From a virus (Duplodnaviria > Heunggongvirae > Uroviricota > Caudoviricetes), in the IMG/VR virus record IMGVR_UViG_3300028453_000031: DNA of 18,658 nucleotides. One strand, 5' to 3'. Shown here one piece after another: positions 1 to 18,232 of this stretch. The translations under genes and the position numbers were made by a program. The notes under the pieces were generated by a model that worked only from the letters and a program-made list of their open reading frames with translations, was not told the origin of the DNA and did no database searches. The first letter of the stretch is position 1; every line of letters starts with the position of its first letter.

Positions 1-586
1 TTTCCACCCGGCGCGCAGAAAGCATACGCAGCAGACGTTCACGGCTGAGAATTTCGCCCGGATTGGTCACAAATGCCACCAACATTTCATACTCTGCGCG
101 GGTTAGTTTAATCGGTTCGCCATCAAAACCTTTCAGGCGCGAATACACCGTCACCACCACAAACGGCAGGCAGAAGGTGATATGCGAGAACAGCAGCGAC
201 CAGAAGCAAAGCTGAATACCCAGCAGCATAAACAGCACCAGAAGCGAAATCGCCATCACAATATCTGGCGACATCATCACCACAAACAGCATTCCGCTAA
301 CGAACGGCTTACCACGAAAGCGATAACGGTACAACGCAACTGCCGTCAGTGAACCGATAAGCGTAGCAAACGTCGCCGAAAACACCGCCATCGTCAGTGA
401 ATGCTGAGCTGCCTGCAACAGACTGTCGTTGTTCATCAGCAGGCTATACCATTTGGTGGTAAAACCCTGCCAGTTGATGCCAAAGCGCGAGCTGTTGAAA
501 GAGTTCACAATCAAAATAATGATTGGGATATACAGGTACGCGTAGATAGCGGTCATAAAACCGCCGCGAAGCAGTCGACCGATCAT
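1..586 (-). CDS. potC: Host ABC transporter permease, PotC-like N-terminal region; apparently disrupted and chimeric at its 3' side
   Basis: Minus-strand ATG at 584-586 translates to MIGRLLRGGFMTAIYAYLYIPIIILIVNSFNSS..., which matches my recollection of the PotC N-terminus. As displayed, the frame hits TGA at 347-349 while PotC-like sequence continues in another frame. The last ~40 codons (1-121) encode GEPIKLTRAEYEMLVAFVTNPGEILSRERLL, an OmpR-family winged-helix segment. Confidence 0.5.
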   Translation of the reverse strand, partial: MIGRLLRGGFMTAIYAYLYIPIIILIVNSFNSSRFGINWQGFTTKWYSLLMNNDSLLQAAQHSLTMAVFSATFATLIGSLTAVALYRYRFRGKPFVSGMLFVVMMSPDIVMAISLLVLFMLLGIQLCFWSLLFSHITFCLPFVVVTVYSRLKGFDGEPIKLTRAEYEMLVAFVTNPGEILSRERLLRMLSARRVE

Positions 587-2170: not shown

Positions 2171-4627
2171 TTAAAAATCAGCCTGACTCGGGATCAGTTT
2201 TTGCCAGATGGCTGAAACGTATTTTGCCTGGTAACGCGCATCGTGCAGGGCGTTATGGCGTTCACCTTCGAATGGAATAGTCGTTCTTGCGTCGAAATCC
2301 ATCACCAGTCCCAGAGCAACCATCGTTCTTACATCGCGATCATTGGTATAACGCCACGGGCAGGGGATCCCCTGCCGTTCATATGAACGGCGTAAAATCA
2401 CGTTGTCGAAAGTTGCACCGTTACCCCAGACCTGAACAAAAAATTCACCGGAGTTTTCGTCGATAAATTCCCGCAATTGTAACAGTGCATCATCTAACGG
2501 GATTTCATCGGTCATAATGGCAGATTGCGCTTCGCGTGATTGCTTAAGCCACCATTTAATGGTGTCCCGATCAATGACTCCGCCAGCAGTTTCCAGATCG
2601 ACAGTCTTACTAAATTCCGGTCCCATATCTCCGGTTTGCGGATCGAAAAATATTGCACCTATTGAGATAATCGGGGCATCAGGATTTTTTCCCATGGTTT
2701 CAAGGTCGATCATTAGATGGTCACACGTCCTGCTGGTGGATGTGATAACGTGATGACCGTTCACCGTAATTAAGGGATCTGCCGTCTCGTCAGTTTCACT
2801 ATCGCTGGCGTGGTCCTGAGCGCTGCCAGCATTCTCCTTGCGTGGATGTTCAGCGCCTTCCATTTTCTCCGAATCGTCTTCCTGAACTTCAACCTGGTTC
2901 TTGTCATCGAATGTTTCCTGGTATGTTGCGTCGCCCATCACCGCACCACAATCAGGGCAGTTGCCGCCACCGCTCTGACCGCAGGCGGTGCAGATCTTTT
3001 CCGGTTCTTGTTGCACTACTGGTTCAGGTTGTTTCGTTTCTGGCTCGTTTTGTTGCGTATTTGGGCTGTTTTGTTCCGCTTTCTGGTCGTTCTGTTCCGT
3101 TTCTTGCTGGTTCTGGTTCACAGAATCGCGGGTTTCAATCCCCTTCACCCATTTAGGATCATTCGGATCGCTAATCCCTTCAACAAATTCACCACGCGAT
3201 ACAGCAAGCAACTTATCGGCATCAGGCTGGCTGATACTGGCTGCCTGCATAGTTTTGTTTACTTCGTCAGCGGTGACTTTTAATTGGTTAGCGGAACTCA
3301 CCTGCGACTGAGCATCCAGCGACTGCGCGTCCTGGCAATGTTCAGTTGTATCCGGTTCCATTCTTTCAGTTGTTGCCTGTTCACCTGCCATTGCGTCAGA
3401 TGGTTGTGGTTTTTCTTTTTCTGTTTCACGCTCAGTAACCACCTCGCGGTTAATTTCTTCCAGGATATCTTTTTCCGGCGTATGCCGGGCAGCTGTGAGA
3501 GTTTCCTTGCTGGGGTTCTCGTGATCAGTTTCCGTCAAATAGGCGTTGATATACCCCTGAAGGCGTCCCGGGTAGTGATAAAATTCAGGGTGTGCGCTTC
3601 GGATAAGTGCAAAAATAGCGGCGCGGGAATAGTCCAGAATACCCGGGGTTGCACGAAGTTCTGCGGACCATTCTTTGAACGGACTTTCTTTTTTCAGGAC
3701 GACTTCTTTTGCGCGACGATAAATGCTGCCCGGAATTTCATAAATATTAAAATCCATCGGAAGTGTGGCTGCTGCAATCTCCACATCCAGTGTGTCGAGG
3801 GTGTGTACTAAATTCGGATTGCGATCGGTTTTGTTCCCTCCACCGGCATTAGCACCGGAAGTCGTGCGGGTGATGCGTGAAACACGATTTCCTTTCATCC
3901 ACTCTTTTGTCAGCAGACCGCGATCGGTGTAGTCAGCGCCCAGGTATGCTTCGAAAAAAGCAGTCATCAGCCCCAGGTCTGAATTACCAGGATTAGGGAA
4001 AACCTTGTCAGTGTCACGAACCAGTTTGTGGAGATCGCGAATTTCCAGCGGTTCGAGTTGCGCAGCTTTATTTGAGATGGCCAGCGCGGTAACGGCGGGA
4101 AGTTTTTCATCCTGTGCGTTATGTAATGCACGCAGTTCGCCCCGCGAAACGTGTGTGATCGGTTTTTCGCTGCCGTGCTGTGCCAGCCATTGAACAGGCA
4201 GAATCTGACCTGAAACCGGCAGGAGCATATTCTCCTCAATCTCAGTCATGTCTTCGCTGTTGACGTTGGTATTGTCAGTGCTGGCTGGTTTGTCCTGAAC
4301 AGAGGATGAGGGCGCGATAGGTGAGGGCGCGATAAGTACCATTGTGATACCATCTTCCCCGCCTTTTTCGTATCGGTTGCAGAATTCGGTATCAAACACG
4401 CCTTCCGGAGGAAGGTCATTCACAACGGGTAAATGGACGCGAACAGGTTTTTTAAAATCCTCTTCGTCAAATCCAGCATCGTCCATTGCGACAACACCGC
4501 GTGATATTGCAACCGATAATTTTTTTGCTGTGCGCCAGTAAAAACCGCCTTTAATCCCAAGACGTTTTCTGACTTTGTCATTTTTGGCTTCGTAATATAG
4601 TGCAATTTCTTCTTTATCAGCGCTCAT
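2171..4627 (-). CDS. Large early protein with C-terminal DnaQ-like (DEDDh) 3'-5' exonuclease domain
   Basis: 818-aa ORF. C-terminal motifs: Exo I MIDLETMG, Exo II WGNGATFDNVIL, Exo III HNALHDARY. Central acidic/Gln-rich low-complexity region with CTACG...CPDCG zinc-ribbon-like pairs. GAGG 8 nt upstream of ATG. Confidence 0.8.
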   Translation of the reverse strand: MSADKEEIALYYEAKNDKVRKRLGIKGGFYWRTAKKLSVAISRGVVAMDDAGFDEEDFKKPVRVHLPVVNDLPPEGVFDTEFCNRYEKGGEDGITMVLIAPSPIAPSSSVQDKPASTDNTNVNSEDMTEIEENMLLPVSGQILPVQWLAQHGSEKPITHVSRGELRALHNAQDEKLPAVTALAISNKAAQLEPLEIRDLHKLVRDTDKVFPNPGNSDLGLMTAFFEAYLGADYTDRGLLTKEWMKGNRVSRITRTTSGANAGGGNKTDRNPNLVHTLDTLDVEIAAATLPMDFNIYEIPGSIYRRAKEVVLKKESPFKEWSAELRATPGILDYSRAAIFALIRSAHPEFYHYPGRLQGYINAYLTETDHENPSKETLTAARHTPEKDILEEINREVVTERETEKEKPQPSDAMAGEQATTERMEPDTTEHCQDAQSLDAQSQVSSANQLKVTADEVNKTMQAASISQPDADKLLAVSRGEFVEGISDPNDPKWVKGIETRDSVNQNQQETEQNDQKAEQNSPNTQQNEPETKQPEPVVQQEPEKICTACGQSGGGNCPDCGAVMGDATYQETFDDKNQVEVQEDDSEKMEGAEHPRKENAGSAQDHASDSETDETADPLITVNGHHVITSTSRTCDHLMIDLETMGKNPDAPIISIGAIFFDPQTGDMGPEFSKTVDLETAGGVIDRDTIKWWLKQSREAQSAIMTDEIPLDDALLQLREFIDENSGEFFVQVWGNGATFDNVILRRSYERQGIPCPWRYTNDRDVRTMVALGLVMDFDARTTIPFEGERHNALHDARYQAKYVSAIWQKLIPSQADF

Positions 4628-4717
4628 TGATAAACCTCATAACCATTTTTAGGGTGAACAAGTCCCTGCCATTGCTGGCATATAAAAATGAAACCGGATA
4701 TTTATTACGGTGCTGGT

Positions 4718-4909
4718 TTAAAGCCCTGCCGGGACTTCGTTATTATCCATGCGAATAACTTTATCTACCGGATAACAGTTACCGGGAATTTTCTGTTCAT
4801 CTGCGGCAGCCATGCATTCTTCCATTGAGTCACGTATATCAACAATAAGATCAAGTGGTTCGCCGGTATTAAGAAAAACTGTCAGAACGAGTGCGAATGC
4901 TGTATTCAT
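4718..4909 (-). CDS. Small hypothetical early protein (63 aa) with hydrophobic N-terminus
   Basis: MNTAFALVLTVFLNTGEPLDL...; start is coupled by an ATGA overlap to the stop of the upstream small gene. The ORF track's longer version (4718..4963) uses an upstream start I consider less likely. Confidence 0.5.
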   Translation of the reverse strand: MNTAFALVLTVFLNTGEPLDLIVDIRDSMEECMAAADEQKIPGNCYPVDKVIRMDNNEVPAGL

Positions 4910-5094
4910 TGCCAGTATCCTTTTTGCATCAGACGTAAACGGGCCAGCATTGAAACAATGCATATTTGATTTAATAACTCCCGTTCGTGTTTTCTCTTAT
5001 TAATGGCATCTTCAGTAAATGCAGGGTTACTGATACTGACACCAATTTCAAAACAACCTTCAGACGTATTAACGTTTGGTAATAACGTTTCCAT
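4906..5094 (-). CDS. Small hypothetical early protein (62 aa)
   Basis: ORF METLLPNVNTSEGCFEIG... with a GAGGA Shine-Dalgarno ~7 nt upstream of the ATG. Confidence 0.55.
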   Translation of the reverse strand: METLLPNVNTSEGCFEIGVSISNPAFTEDAINKRKHERELLNQICIVSMLARLRLMQKGYWQ

Positions 5095-5270
5095 TATCGC
5101 GTCCTCAACAATGAATTTTGTGATGCGGTGCCTGGTGCCTCCAGATGACGTTAACCAGTTAACAATTAACGCCGGATTGTTAGTTGATGTCTGTTACGGA
5201 AGTAAAAGACCGCTTGTTTTAACTGTTCCGCGTGCGCATAGCCGCATTCACCGCATCACAAAATTCACTT

Positions 5271-5297
5271 TAAAAAGGGCGGATATCCATTTCCGCC
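5271..5297 (-). terminator. Rho-independent terminator candidate for leftward early transcription (tL-like)
   Basis: Inverted repeat GGCGGA / TCCGCC (5278-5283 and 5292-5297) with an 8-nt loop; on the minus strand it is followed by a U-run (plus-strand A-run 5272-5276). Confidence 0.5.
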
Positions 5298-5617
5298 GAA
5301 TCACCAGAAAAGTGATAACAGAGGTTGTTGTGGCTGGGGTGTCACTTAAGCGTATGGTCAACCTGACAACCCGGTGTCCTCAATGGGGGAAGGAATAACC
5401 CCGCCATACTTACCGCCGCGCCATTTCGCGGATTGCCACAACCGGAAGCGCACGGTCGAATTAAATTTAACGACAAAGTACAGAGAGACGAACTTCGCCG
5501 AGCGCTTTCGTGTTGTGTGCCTGCTTTTAACCACGTCAGGTGAGGTGGACCTGTTATTCCCCAACAACAAGGATCTTGTTAATCTGGATATCCACAACAA
5601 CAATAAGAGTATTGAAT

Positions 5618-5797
5618 GTGATCGCTGAATTAACGGCAGCAATGACGGCTATTCGTGAAACCGCTCAGATTGCAAAACTAATGAACGAGGCAAAAACTCA
5701 AGCTGAAGTAAATGCGGCTATTGGTGAACTGAACTCAAAGCTTGCATCTATTCAGCGCGAATGCGTGTCTCTCGTTGAGCTGGTGGGCACTTATTAA
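5618..5797 (+). CDS. Small coiled-coil-like ORF on the plus strand, ending at an in-frame TAA
   Basis: Frame encodes ...VIAELTAAMTAIRETAQIAKLMNEAKTQAEVNAAIGELNSKLASIQRECVSLVELVGTY*. Start is uncertain (GTG 5618 with weak AAGAG, or ATG 5645). The same frame stays open after the stop through 6133. Confidence 0.35.
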   Translation: MIAELTAAMTAIRETAQIAKLMNEAKTQAEVNAAIGELNSKLASIQRECVSLVELVGTY

Positions 5798-5917
5798 GAA
5801 ATAAATGCTTCTCTCAAAGCTAAAATTGCAGAATTTGAAAACTTTGAGGCTCAGACGGAAGGTTATATCCTTAACCAACTTGAGTCGGGAACTTTTGTGT
5901 ACTCGAAGGAGGTAACC

Positions 5918-6133
5918 GTGAACGGCGGCAGCATAATCATGCATCTTTGTCCAAAATGTTTTGGACAAAATATAGTATCGATACTTCAACCATTCCCGGT
6001 TAGAGAATATGAGTTTTTTCATAAAAGCAGGTGCCTATACTGTGAAAATCAGTTTATTATGAATAAAAATCCGGATTATGTATCGCCTCCATCTATTGAG
6101 AAGTTGGCCAGAAAACTGAACGGCAATCTGTAG
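5918..6133 (+). CDS. Small zinc-ribbon protein (CxxC...CxxC) on the plus strand
   Basis: Strong Shine-Dalgarno AAGGAGG at 5906-5912, 5 nt before GTG 5918. Product VNGGSIIMHLCPKCFGQN...RCLYCENQF... has two CxxC pairs. Confidence 0.5.
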   Translation: MNGGSIIMHLCPKCFGQNIVSILQPFPVREYEFFHKSRCLYCENQFIMNKNPDYVSPPSIEKLARKLNGNL

Positions 6134-6246
6134 ATTGTTACTGTTATGGATATCCAGATTGTTAAAGAGCATGCCGGATGCTTGCTTGTGTCCGGCGCGT
6201 GTGCACCAGTTCTCCCCGTGGAGGATTCCTTAACTACCAGACTTCA

Positions 6247-6480
6247 TTAGTTAGAGTTTCTTGCTAACCAGCGATGCGCGCCAGCTGCGGTTTTAAACGT
6301 TTTACTTTTGGTATACGTCATCGCGGTGAAGGTGCCGTCCTGGTTAGGGAACACACCGCATACCAGAGATTCGTTGTTACCAAGATTGAGCGTATCCATG
6401 TTGACCTCATTTCCCCTTAACGCCGGGGGAGCGGAACAAAAACCTGCTGCATAGTTATTAATGTTGAACCCTGCCGTCAT
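6247..6480 (-). CDS. Hypothetical protein, first gene of the leftward (pL-like) operon
   Basis: 77-aa ORF with GAGG ~9 nt upstream of the ATG, immediately downstream of the left operator pair. Not Arg-rich, so not obviously N-like. Confidence 0.5.
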   Translation of the reverse strand: MTAGFNINNYAAGFCSAPPALRGNEVNMDTLNLGNNESLVCGVFPNQDGTFTAMTYTKSKTFKTAAGAHRWLARNSN

Positions 6481-6585
6481 GTTCTTACGCCTCAGGCTGG
6501 CTACTTAACCCCTGACCACTGCCGGGTAACTCGAAGTATTGCCCTGCGTTCTGTGGGGCGGGGTGGGTTGGTATGAAAAGAAGGA

Positions 6586-6666: not shown

Positions 6667-7086
6667 CTATGATGCGTTTTGCGCTTTCTTTTTACGGATT
6701 TCTTCGTAGATCATATTGTAATACTGTTTTTTCTCTTCAAGAGTTTTTAATAAGTTATCCGCTTCACTTTCTGGCAGTTCGTCTAAGAGATCTAAAAAAA
6801 TACGTTGTCGTGGCGTTAGAACCCTTGTTTCATAACTGGAGGCTGTGTTCGTTGATGATGAAACGATACCATCCATCCATCCCCGGGGTAACCCAAAGGA
6901 CTCTTCGATAATCTCCACCATATCATCAGCGATCCGTTTTTTTCCCTTTTTCCCCTCTGGGTACAACATTCTTGATACATAAGAAGGCTCGCGCCCGATC
7001 TTTCTGGCCACGTTAACCGCTTTACCATCGCATTTCTCATCACGAATTTTGATGAGTTGCTGTCGTCTAAATTCATATTTGTCCAT
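6667..7086 (-). CDS. Prophage repressor, RacR-like, HTH, without a LexA-type peptidase domain
   Basis: 139-aa ORF divergent from the cro-like gene, with an HTH-like segment AVNVARKIGREPSYVSRMLY and no S24 peptidase motifs. No obvious Shine-Dalgarno, so possibly leaderless like lambda cI. Confidence 0.8.
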   Translation of the reverse strand: MDKYEFRRQQLIKIRDEKCDGKAVNVARKIGREPSYVSRMLYPEGKKGKKRIADDMVEIIEESFGLPRGWMDGIVSSSTNTASSYETRVLTPRQRIFLDLLDELPESEADNLLKTLEEKKQYYNMIYEEIRKKKAQNAS

Positions 7087-11692: not shown

Positions 11693-12193
11693 ATGATTAA
11701 TCGTACTAAACTGGAGCACATCCTCGAATATGCCAGGCAGCAGAGGCATATTGGTCAGCATTGTAAAATTCCAGCAGGAGATATGGTTGAAATCGTGGAG
11801 ATTGCCATGTGTAAGACTGGTAACTCTCAGGTAATTCCAGATGAGGTGCTGTCAGCAATTATGAAGGTAGTCAGGATTCGTACCGACTTTGCCGATTTTG
11901 ACGGTGACAGGCGAGGTATCGGTGATTGTCTGGATGAGTCTGAGCAAGAGCTTATCGTTACCATTAACAAATATGCCAGTCAGTTGGTAGTGGAACCGGT
12001 AGTACCTGATGAAGAACGGGAACAGACAGTCACGCCGCCAACACCTGGTAACCAGATTAACGAATTAACCATGTTGGTTAAGCGATTAGCCAGTTCGCTA
12101 AAAAGCGTCAATAAATCAAGCAAGCTACCTGATAAAGCGATGGAATATCTGAAGCAGAACGGACTGGTTGGTGTGGAGGATATTTTACGATGA
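11693..12193 (+). CDS. Hypothetical protein
   Basis: GGAG-rich Shine-Dalgarno before ATG 11693; 166-aa ORF; stop overlaps the next small ORF start (ATGA). Confidence 0.65.
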   Translation: MINRTKLEHILEYARQQRHIGQHCKIPAGDMVEIVEIAMCKTGNSQVIPDEVLSAIMKVVRIRTDFADFDGDRRGIGDCLDESEQELIVTINKYASQLVVEPVVPDEEREQTVTPPTPGNQINELTMLVKRLASSLKSVNKSSKLPDKAMEYLKQNGLVGVEDILR

Positions 12194-12422: not shown

Positions 12423-12656
12423 ATATGGGAATTCCCATATTGGGCAAAAACGGTTTGCTGTAAAGCGAGAGTTAAGTAGAATTGCTGCGGGTGCTTGAGG
12501 CTGTCTGCCTCGGGCATGCCGCCGTAAGGCAGACAGAGAAAAGCCCCAGTTAACATAACGCGTCCTGCAAGACGCTTAACATTAATCTGAGGCCCAATCT
12601 ATGTCTCACAAATGTAGGTTAGCCTCTTACGTGCCGAAGGCAAGGAGAAGCAGGCT
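12423..12656 (+). promoter_or_regulatory. hok mRNA leader region with strong secondary structure; expected location of the antisense (sok-like) RNA
   Basis: 18-bp perfect palindrome ATATGGGAATTCCCATAT (12423-12440); 10-bp perfect stem CTGTCTGCCT / AGGCAGACAG (12501-12510 and 12527-12536); short leader ORF 12601-12660 ending in ATGA at the hok start. Confidence 0.45.
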
Positions 12657-12812
12657 ATGAAGCAGCAAAAGGCGACGTTAATCGCCCTGATCGTCATCTG
12701 TTTAACCGTCATAGTGACGGCACTGGTAACGAGGAAAGACCTCTGCGAGGTACGAATCCGAACCGGCCAGACGGAGGTCGCTGTTTTCACAGTCTACGAA
12801 CCTGAGGAGTAA
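12657..12812 (+). CDS. hok: Hok/Gef family type I toxin
   Basis: 51-aa product MKQQKATLIALIVICLTVIVTALVTRKDLCEVRIRTGQTEVAVFTVYEPEE matches the Hok family pattern (TM helix then TRK.LCE.R.R.G..EVA....YE). AAGGAG 9 nt upstream. Confidence 0.85.
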   Translation: MKQQKATLIALIVICLTVIVTALVTRKDLCEVRIRTGQTEVAVFTVYEPEE

Positions 12813-12878
12813 GAGTGACCTGGGCGGGGTACTGATCCCATCCCCGCCCACCTCTGATGTGTCAGGCATCCTCAATGC

Positions 12879-17043: not shown

Positions 17044-17119
17044 GGCCCTTTAGCTCAGTGGTGAGAGCGAGCGACTCATAATCGCCAGGTCGCTGGTTCA
17101 AATCCAGCAAGGGCCACCA
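17044..17119 (+). tRNA. ileZ: tRNA-Ile (anticodon CAU, lysidine type), ileX/ileZ-like
   Basis: 76 nt, 7-bp acceptor stem GGCCCTT/AAGGGCC, anticodon loop CTCATAA, T-loop TTCAAAT, 3' CCA. Near-identical to E. coli tRNA-Ile2 as I recall it. Confidence 0.85.
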
Positions 17120-17128
17120 TATCACATA

Positions 17129-17205
17129 CCGCCATTAGCTCATCGGGATAGAGCGCCAGCCTTCGAAGCTGGCTGCGCGGGGTTCGAGTCCTCGATGGCG
17201 GTCCA
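17129..17205 (+). tRNA. tRNA-Arg (anticodon UCG)
   Basis: 77 nt, acceptor CCGCCAT/ATGGCGG, D-arm GCTC/GAGC, anticodon stem CCAGC/GCTGG with loop CTTCGAA, T-arm CGGGG-TTCGAGT-CCTCG, 3' CCA. Resembles the rare-codon Arg tRNA (argO-like) of Stx phages. Confidence 0.8.
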
Positions 17206-17942: not shown

Positions 17943-18202
17943 GATTTTGGGGCGCTGGAAAGATATTGTGCTGTGAAGTGTTAAATCCCTCACAATTCAG
18001 TAAGTTGACAGTTGCCTGTCAGACTGAGCATTTGTTAAAAAAATTTCGCATGGTGAATCCCCCTGTGCGGAGGGGCGACTGGTGAACGGTATGATCTCTT
18101 TGATGATCGTAAGCGAGAATACGCGGGTTTGGTGTCACCGGGCTGAACTCACCGGGAGGCACCCGGCACCATGCTCATGGTGATACAGAAATGCGGCTTC
18201 AG

Positions 18203-18228
18203 CCCCTCTCCGGAGGGGCTTTCTTATG
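18203..18228 (+). terminator. Rho-independent terminator (plus strand)
   Basis: GCCCCTC-TCCG-GAGGGGC perfect 7-bp stem followed by TTTCTTAT. Confidence 0.5.
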
Positions 18229-18232
18229 GACA

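Follow-up and report, generated by a model that had tools for sequence, protein, structure and literature searches.

We found that positions 5618-6133 on the plus strand of the window, by which we mean the whole 18,658-nt stretch of viral DNA analysed here, are best read as a single prophage-encoded abortive defence gene of the Rip1 ('ring interacting pore 1') family, inactivated by a change of CAA to TAA at codon 60. We put the probability of this reading at roughly 0.88. The window consists of a lambdoid (Rac/Qin-like) prophage that is integrated beside potC in E. coli. The first-pass annotation, made from the letters alone, had proposed for this frame either a counter-oriented pair of genes, for example a toxin-antitoxin or defence module, or one gene carrying a nonsense mutation or undergoing stop-codon readthrough. 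Comparison with intact alleles and with the wider family indicates that 5618-6133 (+) is one 171-codon gene and not a pair.

Translation of 5540-6133 (+) gave one frame that ends at a terminal TAG (6131-6133) and is interrupted by an internal TAA at 5795-5797 and by no other stop, just as the first-pass annotation had described it. In the ORF listing of the window, this frame appears as two pieces, 5540-5797 and 5897-6133. We placed the start of the rip1-like gene at GTG 5618 instead of at 5540 or 5612 because the N-terminal sequence MIAEL... is conserved. The features along the frame are as follows.

5618-6133, plus strand: rip1-like gene, pseudogenised, with 171 codons plus stop; the assignment draws on a PGAP call of 'internal stop' with the same coordinates in E. 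coli M18 and CI5, on intact 171-aa orthologues and on Rip1 homology.
5618, plus strand: GTG start codon of the rip1-like gene, with AAGAG 8 nt upstream.
5618-5794, plus strand: N-terminal fragment that is still translatable (59 aa), covering helix 1 and the first half of helix 2 of the AlphaFold2 model.
5795-5797, plus strand: premature stop TAA at codon 60, derived from CAA (Gln) by C>T at 5795 in the alignment with intact alleles.
5798-6130, plus strand: untranslated remainder, covering the second half of helix 2 and a beta-rich, four-cysteine (zinc-ribbon-like) C-terminal domain.
5906-5920, plus strand: AAGGAGG (5906-5912), 5 nt and GTG 5918 (codon 101), a Shine-Dalgarno-like arrangement, in frame and within the coding sequence.
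5948-5959, plus strand: first CxxC motif, Cys111 and Cys114 (codons 111-114), invariant in family alignments.
6032-6043, plus strand: second CxxC motif, Cys139 and Cys142 (codons 139-142), likewise invariant in family alignments.

The two CxxC motifs and the near-perfect Shine-Dalgarno sequence ahead of GTG 5918 had both been noticed in the first pass and are present as reported. The frame had also been called more AT-rich than its neighbours, which is correct for the immediate flanks, as the rip1-like gene has 40-41% GC against 49-50% for 5150-5600 and 6200-6500, and incorrect for the dicB region at 4550-5150 (39-42% GC). The composition contrast is thus modest, because the dicB region to the left is just as AT-rich. 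A promoter scan upstream of 5618 detected no consensus sigma-70 promoter, and its two regional matches equal the number expected from shuffled sequences. On the plus strand, no Rfam family overlaps the rip1-like gene. A minus-strand ORF at 5735-6022, antisense to the rip1-like gene, was rejected as a gene because it has no PHROG match and is annotated nowhere.

The stop at codon 60 is private to a few closely related prophages. The window prophage is 99.5-99.6% identical to the prophages of E. coli M18 and CI5, in both of which PGAP/RefSeq calls the stretch equal to 5618-6133 a pseudogene ('hypothetical protein, internal stop'). Whether the stop is conserved had been raised as a question in the first pass, and it is not: the closest intact alleles, those of M3, PG20180057, RM10466 and phage PhiR49_1, have CAA (Gln60) at this position and encode a 171-aa protein. 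The intact allele of M3 and PG20180057 is 99% identical to the window sequence (protein WP_148886034.1), and that of RM10466 encodes WP_000559919.1. Together with the RefSeq label on the identical allele, these CAA alleles bear out the proposal of a single gene with a nonsense mutation. Using a 31-mer that matches only if T is present at 5795, we searched 5,426 complete E. coli genomes and found the T in two of them, M18 and CI5 only, while the gene itself is carried by about 649 of the 5,426 (about 12%).

This distribution also bears on two other accounts of the stop. The first is that a full-length protein is nevertheless made by programmed readthrough or recoding, or with the help of a phage suppressor tRNA, for which one could cite the otherwise intact frame and the presence of tRNA genes in the prophage. 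However, the stop is not conserved, occurring in only 2 of the 5,426 genomes, and the two tRNAs of the window are Met(CAT) and Arg(TCG), neither of them a suppressor. UAA is, moreover, the most efficient terminator in E. coli. We therefore consider the readthrough proposed in the first pass extremely improbable. The second account is a sequencing or assembly error, with the gene really intact in the source strain, as might be suspected for a difference of one substituted base. This is very unlikely, since the same T is found in the two independently assembled complete genomes of M18 and CI5 and is accompanied in all three strains by four allele-specific changes.

Compared with the nearest intact allele, the window allele has five substitutions, all of them GC>AT, the first being the nonsense change at 5795. 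The four derived changes past the stop are at 5971 (K118N), 6037 (synonymous), 6056 (L147I) and 6101 (E162K), and all four are common to the window, M18 and CI5 along with the T, whereas codons 1-59 are the same as in the nearest intact allele. Counted over the aligned prophage, 60 positions separate M18 (from mouse) from the window and 29 separate CI5 (from human) from it, and we therefore regard the three as separate strains. Between the window and M3, the interval 5795-6101 has 5 substitutions in 307 nt, compared with 52 in 6,453 nt (background 0.6-0.8%). The excess past the stop is suggestive only of relaxed selection, as a rough Poisson test gave a marginal p of about 0.05. Other E. coli strains have other damaged versions (among P0043, P0019, P0054 and P0086): one is truncated near residue 108, inside the first CxxC, and in others the family sequence gives way at about residues 84-126 to an unrelated fused part (tail-fibre-like or DUF1627). 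These truncated and fused versions look like independent inactivations, which fits a repeated loss of the rip1-like gene in decaying prophages. Elsewhere in the prophage, a DUF551 fragment at about 11702-11863 (L002 15303-15464) is incomplete in M18 and frameshifted in CI5; this second decayed gene suggests that lesions are accumulating throughout the prophage.

The protein family to which the intact alleles belong is large and consists of single chains. Among 5.8 billion proteins searched, we found 119 homologues across Enterobacterales, none of them named, from Escherichia, Salmonella, Citrobacter, Klebsiella, Enterobacter, Cronobacter, Edwardsiella, Serratia, Arsenophonus and other genera. 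Those homologues that are neither cut off nor fused are single ORFs of about 155-175 aa, with both halves covered. When 1.84 billion cluster representatives were searched with a profile, 3,340 relatives passed E <= 1e-3 and 1,824 of them E <= 1e-10; among the matches listed, nearly all cluster representatives have 145-180 aa and align from profile position about 1 to 150. The four cysteines, L66, G91, V94 and Y95 do not vary among 32 diverse members that we aligned. Searches of Pfam, NCBIfam and PADLOC with the intact protein and with each half gave only sub-threshold coiled-coil and zinc-ribbon noise; the PADLOC version used (2023) predates Rip1.

These data are difficult to reconcile with a counter-oriented two-gene module, in which a coiled-coil gene upstream and a zinc-ribbon gene downstream would form a toxin-antitoxin or defence pair. 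The tandem ORFs and the Shine-Dalgarno-like motif ahead of the second one do give that appearance. Yet the two ORFs share a frame and are parted only by one codon, which is CAA in relatives, and the listed relatives that are neither cut off nor fused are one protein with both halves. The solved Rip1 structure is likewise a single chain with both parts, and neither PADLOC nor Pfam gave a toxin-antitoxin match. A two-gene module is thus hardly credible, the relatives being single chains with a length of about 145-180 aa. Of the pair proposed in the first pass only the kind of function survives, as a Rip1-family gene would indeed be a defence gene.

The same alignments account for the ribosome-binding signal inside the frame. 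The AAGGAGG-GTG motif is unchanged in the intact alleles of RM10466 and PhiR49_1, and the residues that it encodes (K97, E98, V99 and V101) vary across the 32 aligned members. Because it is kept in intact alleles and its residues are unconserved in the family, we take the motif to be a by-product of the coding sequence. Independent initiation at 5918, which had been suggested from the motif, is accordingly not upheld.

We assigned the single 171-codon gene to Rip1 on several lines of evidence. The intact protein matched phrog_1244 ('unknown function') in PHROGs with E = 1e-57. The same PHROG also takes in HK446 Rip1, HK620 HkaP and JBD30 gp30, the four proteins matching it with E = 1e-51 to 1e-61. 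When the family profile was run against all PDB sequences with hmmsearch, 9oox, which according to its PDB title is Escherichia phage HK446 Rip1 in complex with the phage T6 small terminase, was matched with E = 2.6e-23 over profile positions 5-152. Used as a single sequence, the protein matched 9oox in phmmer (E = 4.5e-7), with both CxxC motifs aligned. Using tblastn against phage genomes, we obtained E-values of about 1e-11 for JBD30, DMS3 and D3112, 1e-12 for HK620 hkaP and 1e-5 for HK446, and the matches fall into three groups: HK446 gp37; HkaP of HK620, HK629 and HK630; and the Pseudomonas Mu-like phages JBD30, DMS3, MP38 and D3112 (orf25). Between the window subfamily, HK446 Rip1, HkaP and JBD30 gp30 there is no variation at Q46, L66, Y83, V94, Y95, I122 or any of the four Cys, and the motifs VY and SILQ also align with the latter three.

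The predicted structure agrees with this assignment. The AlphaFold2 model, which was built on the alignment, has a mean pLDDT of 90.7. Its N-terminal part is formed by two long helices, at residues 2-23 and 28-79, and is followed by six strands that make up a domain over 84-150 and then by a short helix at the C-terminus; the upstream part, called coiled-coil-like in the first pass, is thus predicted to be helical. In a Foldseek search against the PDB, the model matched 9oox_M with E = 4.5e-7, a probability of 1.00, TM-scores of 0.54/0.70 (0.70 when normalised to the target) and 27% identity, and nothing else significant was found there, the next match having E = 0.25. As a sequence proxy for amphipathicity, we calculated the hydrophobic moment over residues 1-30, which was 0.27-0.41, compared with 0.27-0.41 for HK446 Rip1 and 0.28-0.33 for JBD30 gp30. 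The N-terminal amphipathicity is therefore moderate (muH 0.3-0.4), comparable to that of known Rip1 proteins and not stronger. The characterised Rip1 proteins are 27-30% identical to the window subfamily, and by homology to relatives at this distance we infer the function of the intact branch. A complete ORF with both pore and sensor parts is absent from the window copy owing to the TAA at codon 60, so the copy itself is to be classed, from its sequence, as a pseudogene of the Rip1 family and not as a functional member.

The primary report on Rip1 (Patel et al. 2026, Nature 651:1060) is known to us through a review (PMC13434031), a conference report (PMC12908700) and a citing paper (PMC13601566), and the following description is limited to what these three accounts relate. 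Rip1 is a single-protein defence of a P. aeruginosa prophage, sited between the small and large terminase genes. Alone it is non-toxic, while superinfected cells round up. Phages that escape have mutations in the portal gene (Pseudomonas phages) or in the small terminase gene (E. coli phages). By cryo-EM, an 11-mer ring of small terminase is surrounded by 12 Rip1 subunits, which contact the ring through their C-terminal half, whereas the N-terminal part is an amphipathic helix. Dye leaks from liposomes exposed to Rip1 complexes, and E. coli is perforated by them; homologues are widespread in proteobacteria, chiefly in prophages (PMC13434031, PMC12908700, PMC13601566). The review describes the N-terminal part as amphipathic and pore-forming and the C-terminal domain as the part that contacts the phage protein ring (PMC13434031).

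By homology with the Pseudomonas and HK446 Rip1 proteins, the intact protein of our branch would be produced by the lysogen, where expression of the gene is presumed, and would be harmless alone. A superinfecting phage would then make ring-shaped morphogenesis proteins, either the small terminase 11-mer or the portal, around which the C-terminal four-cysteine beta domain may bind. The ring would template a Rip1 12-mer whose N-terminal amphipathic helices could form a membrane pore, and the pore would break the integrity of the inner membrane, so that the cell would be killed or lysed before progeny mature. Codon 60 falls in the middle of helix 2 in the AlphaFold2 model. Since translation ends there after 59 residues, the whole sensor (ring-binding) domain is missing, and the window copy is predicted to be non-functional, a null allele.

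Could the two fragments nevertheless retain some activity? The 59-aa helical peptide, a C-terminal fragment started at GTG 5918 or ATG 5939, or both, might act as a decoy or dominant-negative form against other Rip1 copies, as a small membrane-active peptide or as a two-part defence. The Shine-Dalgarno sequence before GTG 5918 is near-ideal in sequence and spacing, the TAA allele occurs in at least three strains (window, M18 and CI5), and codons 1-59 are unaltered relative to the nearest intact allele. However, intact alleles have the Shine-Dalgarno-GTG arrangement too, and its presence is thus no adaptation to the stop. Restarting translation at GTG 5918 (codon 101) or ATG 5939 (codon 108) would cost the product the first two strands of the C-terminal domain; in the AlphaFold2 model, the codon-101 start removes strands 84-87 and 93-101. 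In addition, the split state is absent among the listed relatives, the allele is rare (2 of the 5,426 genomes), and three of the four changes past the stop are non-synonymous. Activity of the split gene is for these reasons quite improbable. Improbable too is an adaptive origin of the knockout, in which intact Rip1 of this subtype would be triggered on induction by the small terminase or portal ring of its own or a co-resident prophage and the stop would have been selected against self-killing, or in which the 59-aa peptide or the 5918 fragment would serve as a decoy modulating other Rip1 copies. If such an adaptive or decoy role were true, the window would illustrate how, in nature, a ring-sensing defence is traded off against resident prophages. 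We retain the null allele of a single Rip1-family gene as the best reading.

The rip1-like gene forms a self-contained cassette in the leftward early region of the prophage. The surrounding features are as follows.

4906-5094, minus strand: dicB, a neighbour of the rip1-like gene.
5297-5278, minus strand: terminator-like hairpin between the rip1-like gene and dicB.
5511-6170, plus strand: mobile cassette consisting of the rip1-like gene flanked by about 107 nt of upstream and 37 nt of downstream sequence, 94% identical to PhiR49_1.
6247-6399, minus strand: DUF1391/ydaF-like gene, the other neighbour of the rip1-like gene.
6667-7086, minus strand: repressor-like gene in the same leftward region.

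The leftward order is repressor-like gene, DUF1391/ydaF-like gene, rip1-like gene (+), hairpin, dicB, DUF1482 gene, exonuclease, xis and int. That the frame is transcribed against the surrounding operon had been recognised in the first pass, and the dicB, DUF1391/ydaF-like and repressor-like genes are indeed all on the minus strand; the rip1-like gene is on the plus strand, against the flanking minus-strand operon, in the window, M18 and RM10466 alike. The block 5511-6170 behaves as an autonomous 'moron' cassette because PhiR49_1 has it amid different flanking genes. Relatives are counter-oriented in other genera as well, between xis and the S24 repressor in Citrobacter prophages and between exonuclease genes and N in Edwardsiella prophages. 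In Edwardsiella (L016 7105-8507; L015/L016 4962-6279), two plus-strand genes of 228 and 175 aa follow the rip1-like gene before N, and one strain has a gene with a GmrSD_N domain near it; the Edwardsiella early-left region may be a small defence hotspot.

Several other elements of the window were observed along the way. A strong match to the Rfam sRNA STnc100 lies at 18019-18231 (+), with 172 bits. A second, STnc100-like match, weak and below threshold (32.5 bits, E = 9e-5), lies at 5062-5279 (-), just upstream of dicB, and ends at the hairpin at 5297-5278. In Rac, the sRNA KilS occupies this position, and the match may represent a diverged prophage sRNA upstream of a division inhibitor. A small ORF at about 5361-5531 (-) matches phrog_8854 (unknown function) with E = 4e-31 and has no PGAP annotation in M18, CI5 and M3. 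The DNA beneath it (5400-5575) is 91-96% conserved in many lambdoid and Stx phages, and it may be a conserved non-coding element instead of a protein gene, because the translation is very basic and of odd composition. The prophage also contains a hok/sok type I toxin-antitoxin locus at 12489-12822, with Rfam sok at 12489-12662 (109 bits) and hokD at the M18 equivalent of 12667-12822. Its Met(CAT) and Arg(TCG) tRNA genes are situated at 17044-17205 (+), downstream of the antiterminator gene, and the one with the CAT anticodon may presumably be of the Ile2 type, as in Stx phages. At the left end of the window (1-122), the first 115-122 bases are not contiguous with potC or its neighbourhood in M18, CI5 and M3, where the potC match runs from 116/123 on, which may reflect a rearrangement or junction.

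What was already known of this locus is that RefSeq flags the identical allele as a pseudogene, there with no link to Rip1. What is new is that the sequence and model comparisons place a common enterobacterial 'hypothetical protein' in the Rip1 family and in the slot of sieB. The main value of the assignment thus lies in annotation, as it concerns a 171-aa 'hypothetical protein' of about 12% of complete E. coli genomes and of many other Enterobacterales. The window copy is a dead allele from which nothing mechanistically new is to be learned; together with the truncated and fused versions, it points to a rip1-like defence gene repeatedly lost as prophages decay. The intact alleles are candidates for finding the phage ring proteins sensed by this branch.

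Among the closest known systems, SieB of Rac, lambda and P22 shares its genomic position with the window gene. SieB is a single prophage-expressed gene that aborts a superinfecting phage. In the K-12 prophage Rac, sieB is a plus-strand gene between kilR/kilS, a kil-type division inhibitor with its sRNA, and ydaF (DUF1391), so the rip1-like gene occupies the sieB slot. The window protein had no match to the SieB family in Pfam, NCBIfam or PHROGs, and, judged from its sequence, SieB is a positional analogue and not a homologue. HkaP of phage HK620 (NP_112049, 'putative superinfection exclusion protein') is, in contrast, in the same PHROG, with 29% identity over 90% of the length, and hkaP is counter-oriented in the pL operon between N/hkaQ and cIII. 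It differs from the window gene in being intact and on a different branch of the family, and its superinfection-exclusion annotation is positional only; the hkaP literature that we found consists of one biosensor engineering paper, without functional data.

The closest characterised counterparts are Rip1 of HK446 (gp37, YP_007111990, PDB 9oox) and the Rip1 of P. aeruginosa Mu-like prophages (JBD30 gp30-type). Like the window gene, they fall in the length class of 164-171 aa, combine long N-terminal helices with a beta-rich C-terminal domain in which the four cysteines align, and are encoded by a single prophage-borne gene on the strand opposite to the surrounding operon. HK446 Rip1 is counter-oriented between N and the ral-like/cIII/kil genes, the same early-left region as that of the window gene, whereas JBD30 gp30 is counter-oriented with a DNA-binding (small-terminase-like) gene on one side and the large terminase gene on the other, which matches the Pseudomonas Rip1 locus as the review describes it (PMC13434031). 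Besides its low identity, the window gene differs from both in other respects. With its stop at codon 60, the window copy is unable to encode the sensor domain, and, in the window subfamily as a whole, the C-terminal tail past the second CxxC is different, so the phage trigger recognised by the intact members may also differ from that of the HK446 and JBD30 proteins.
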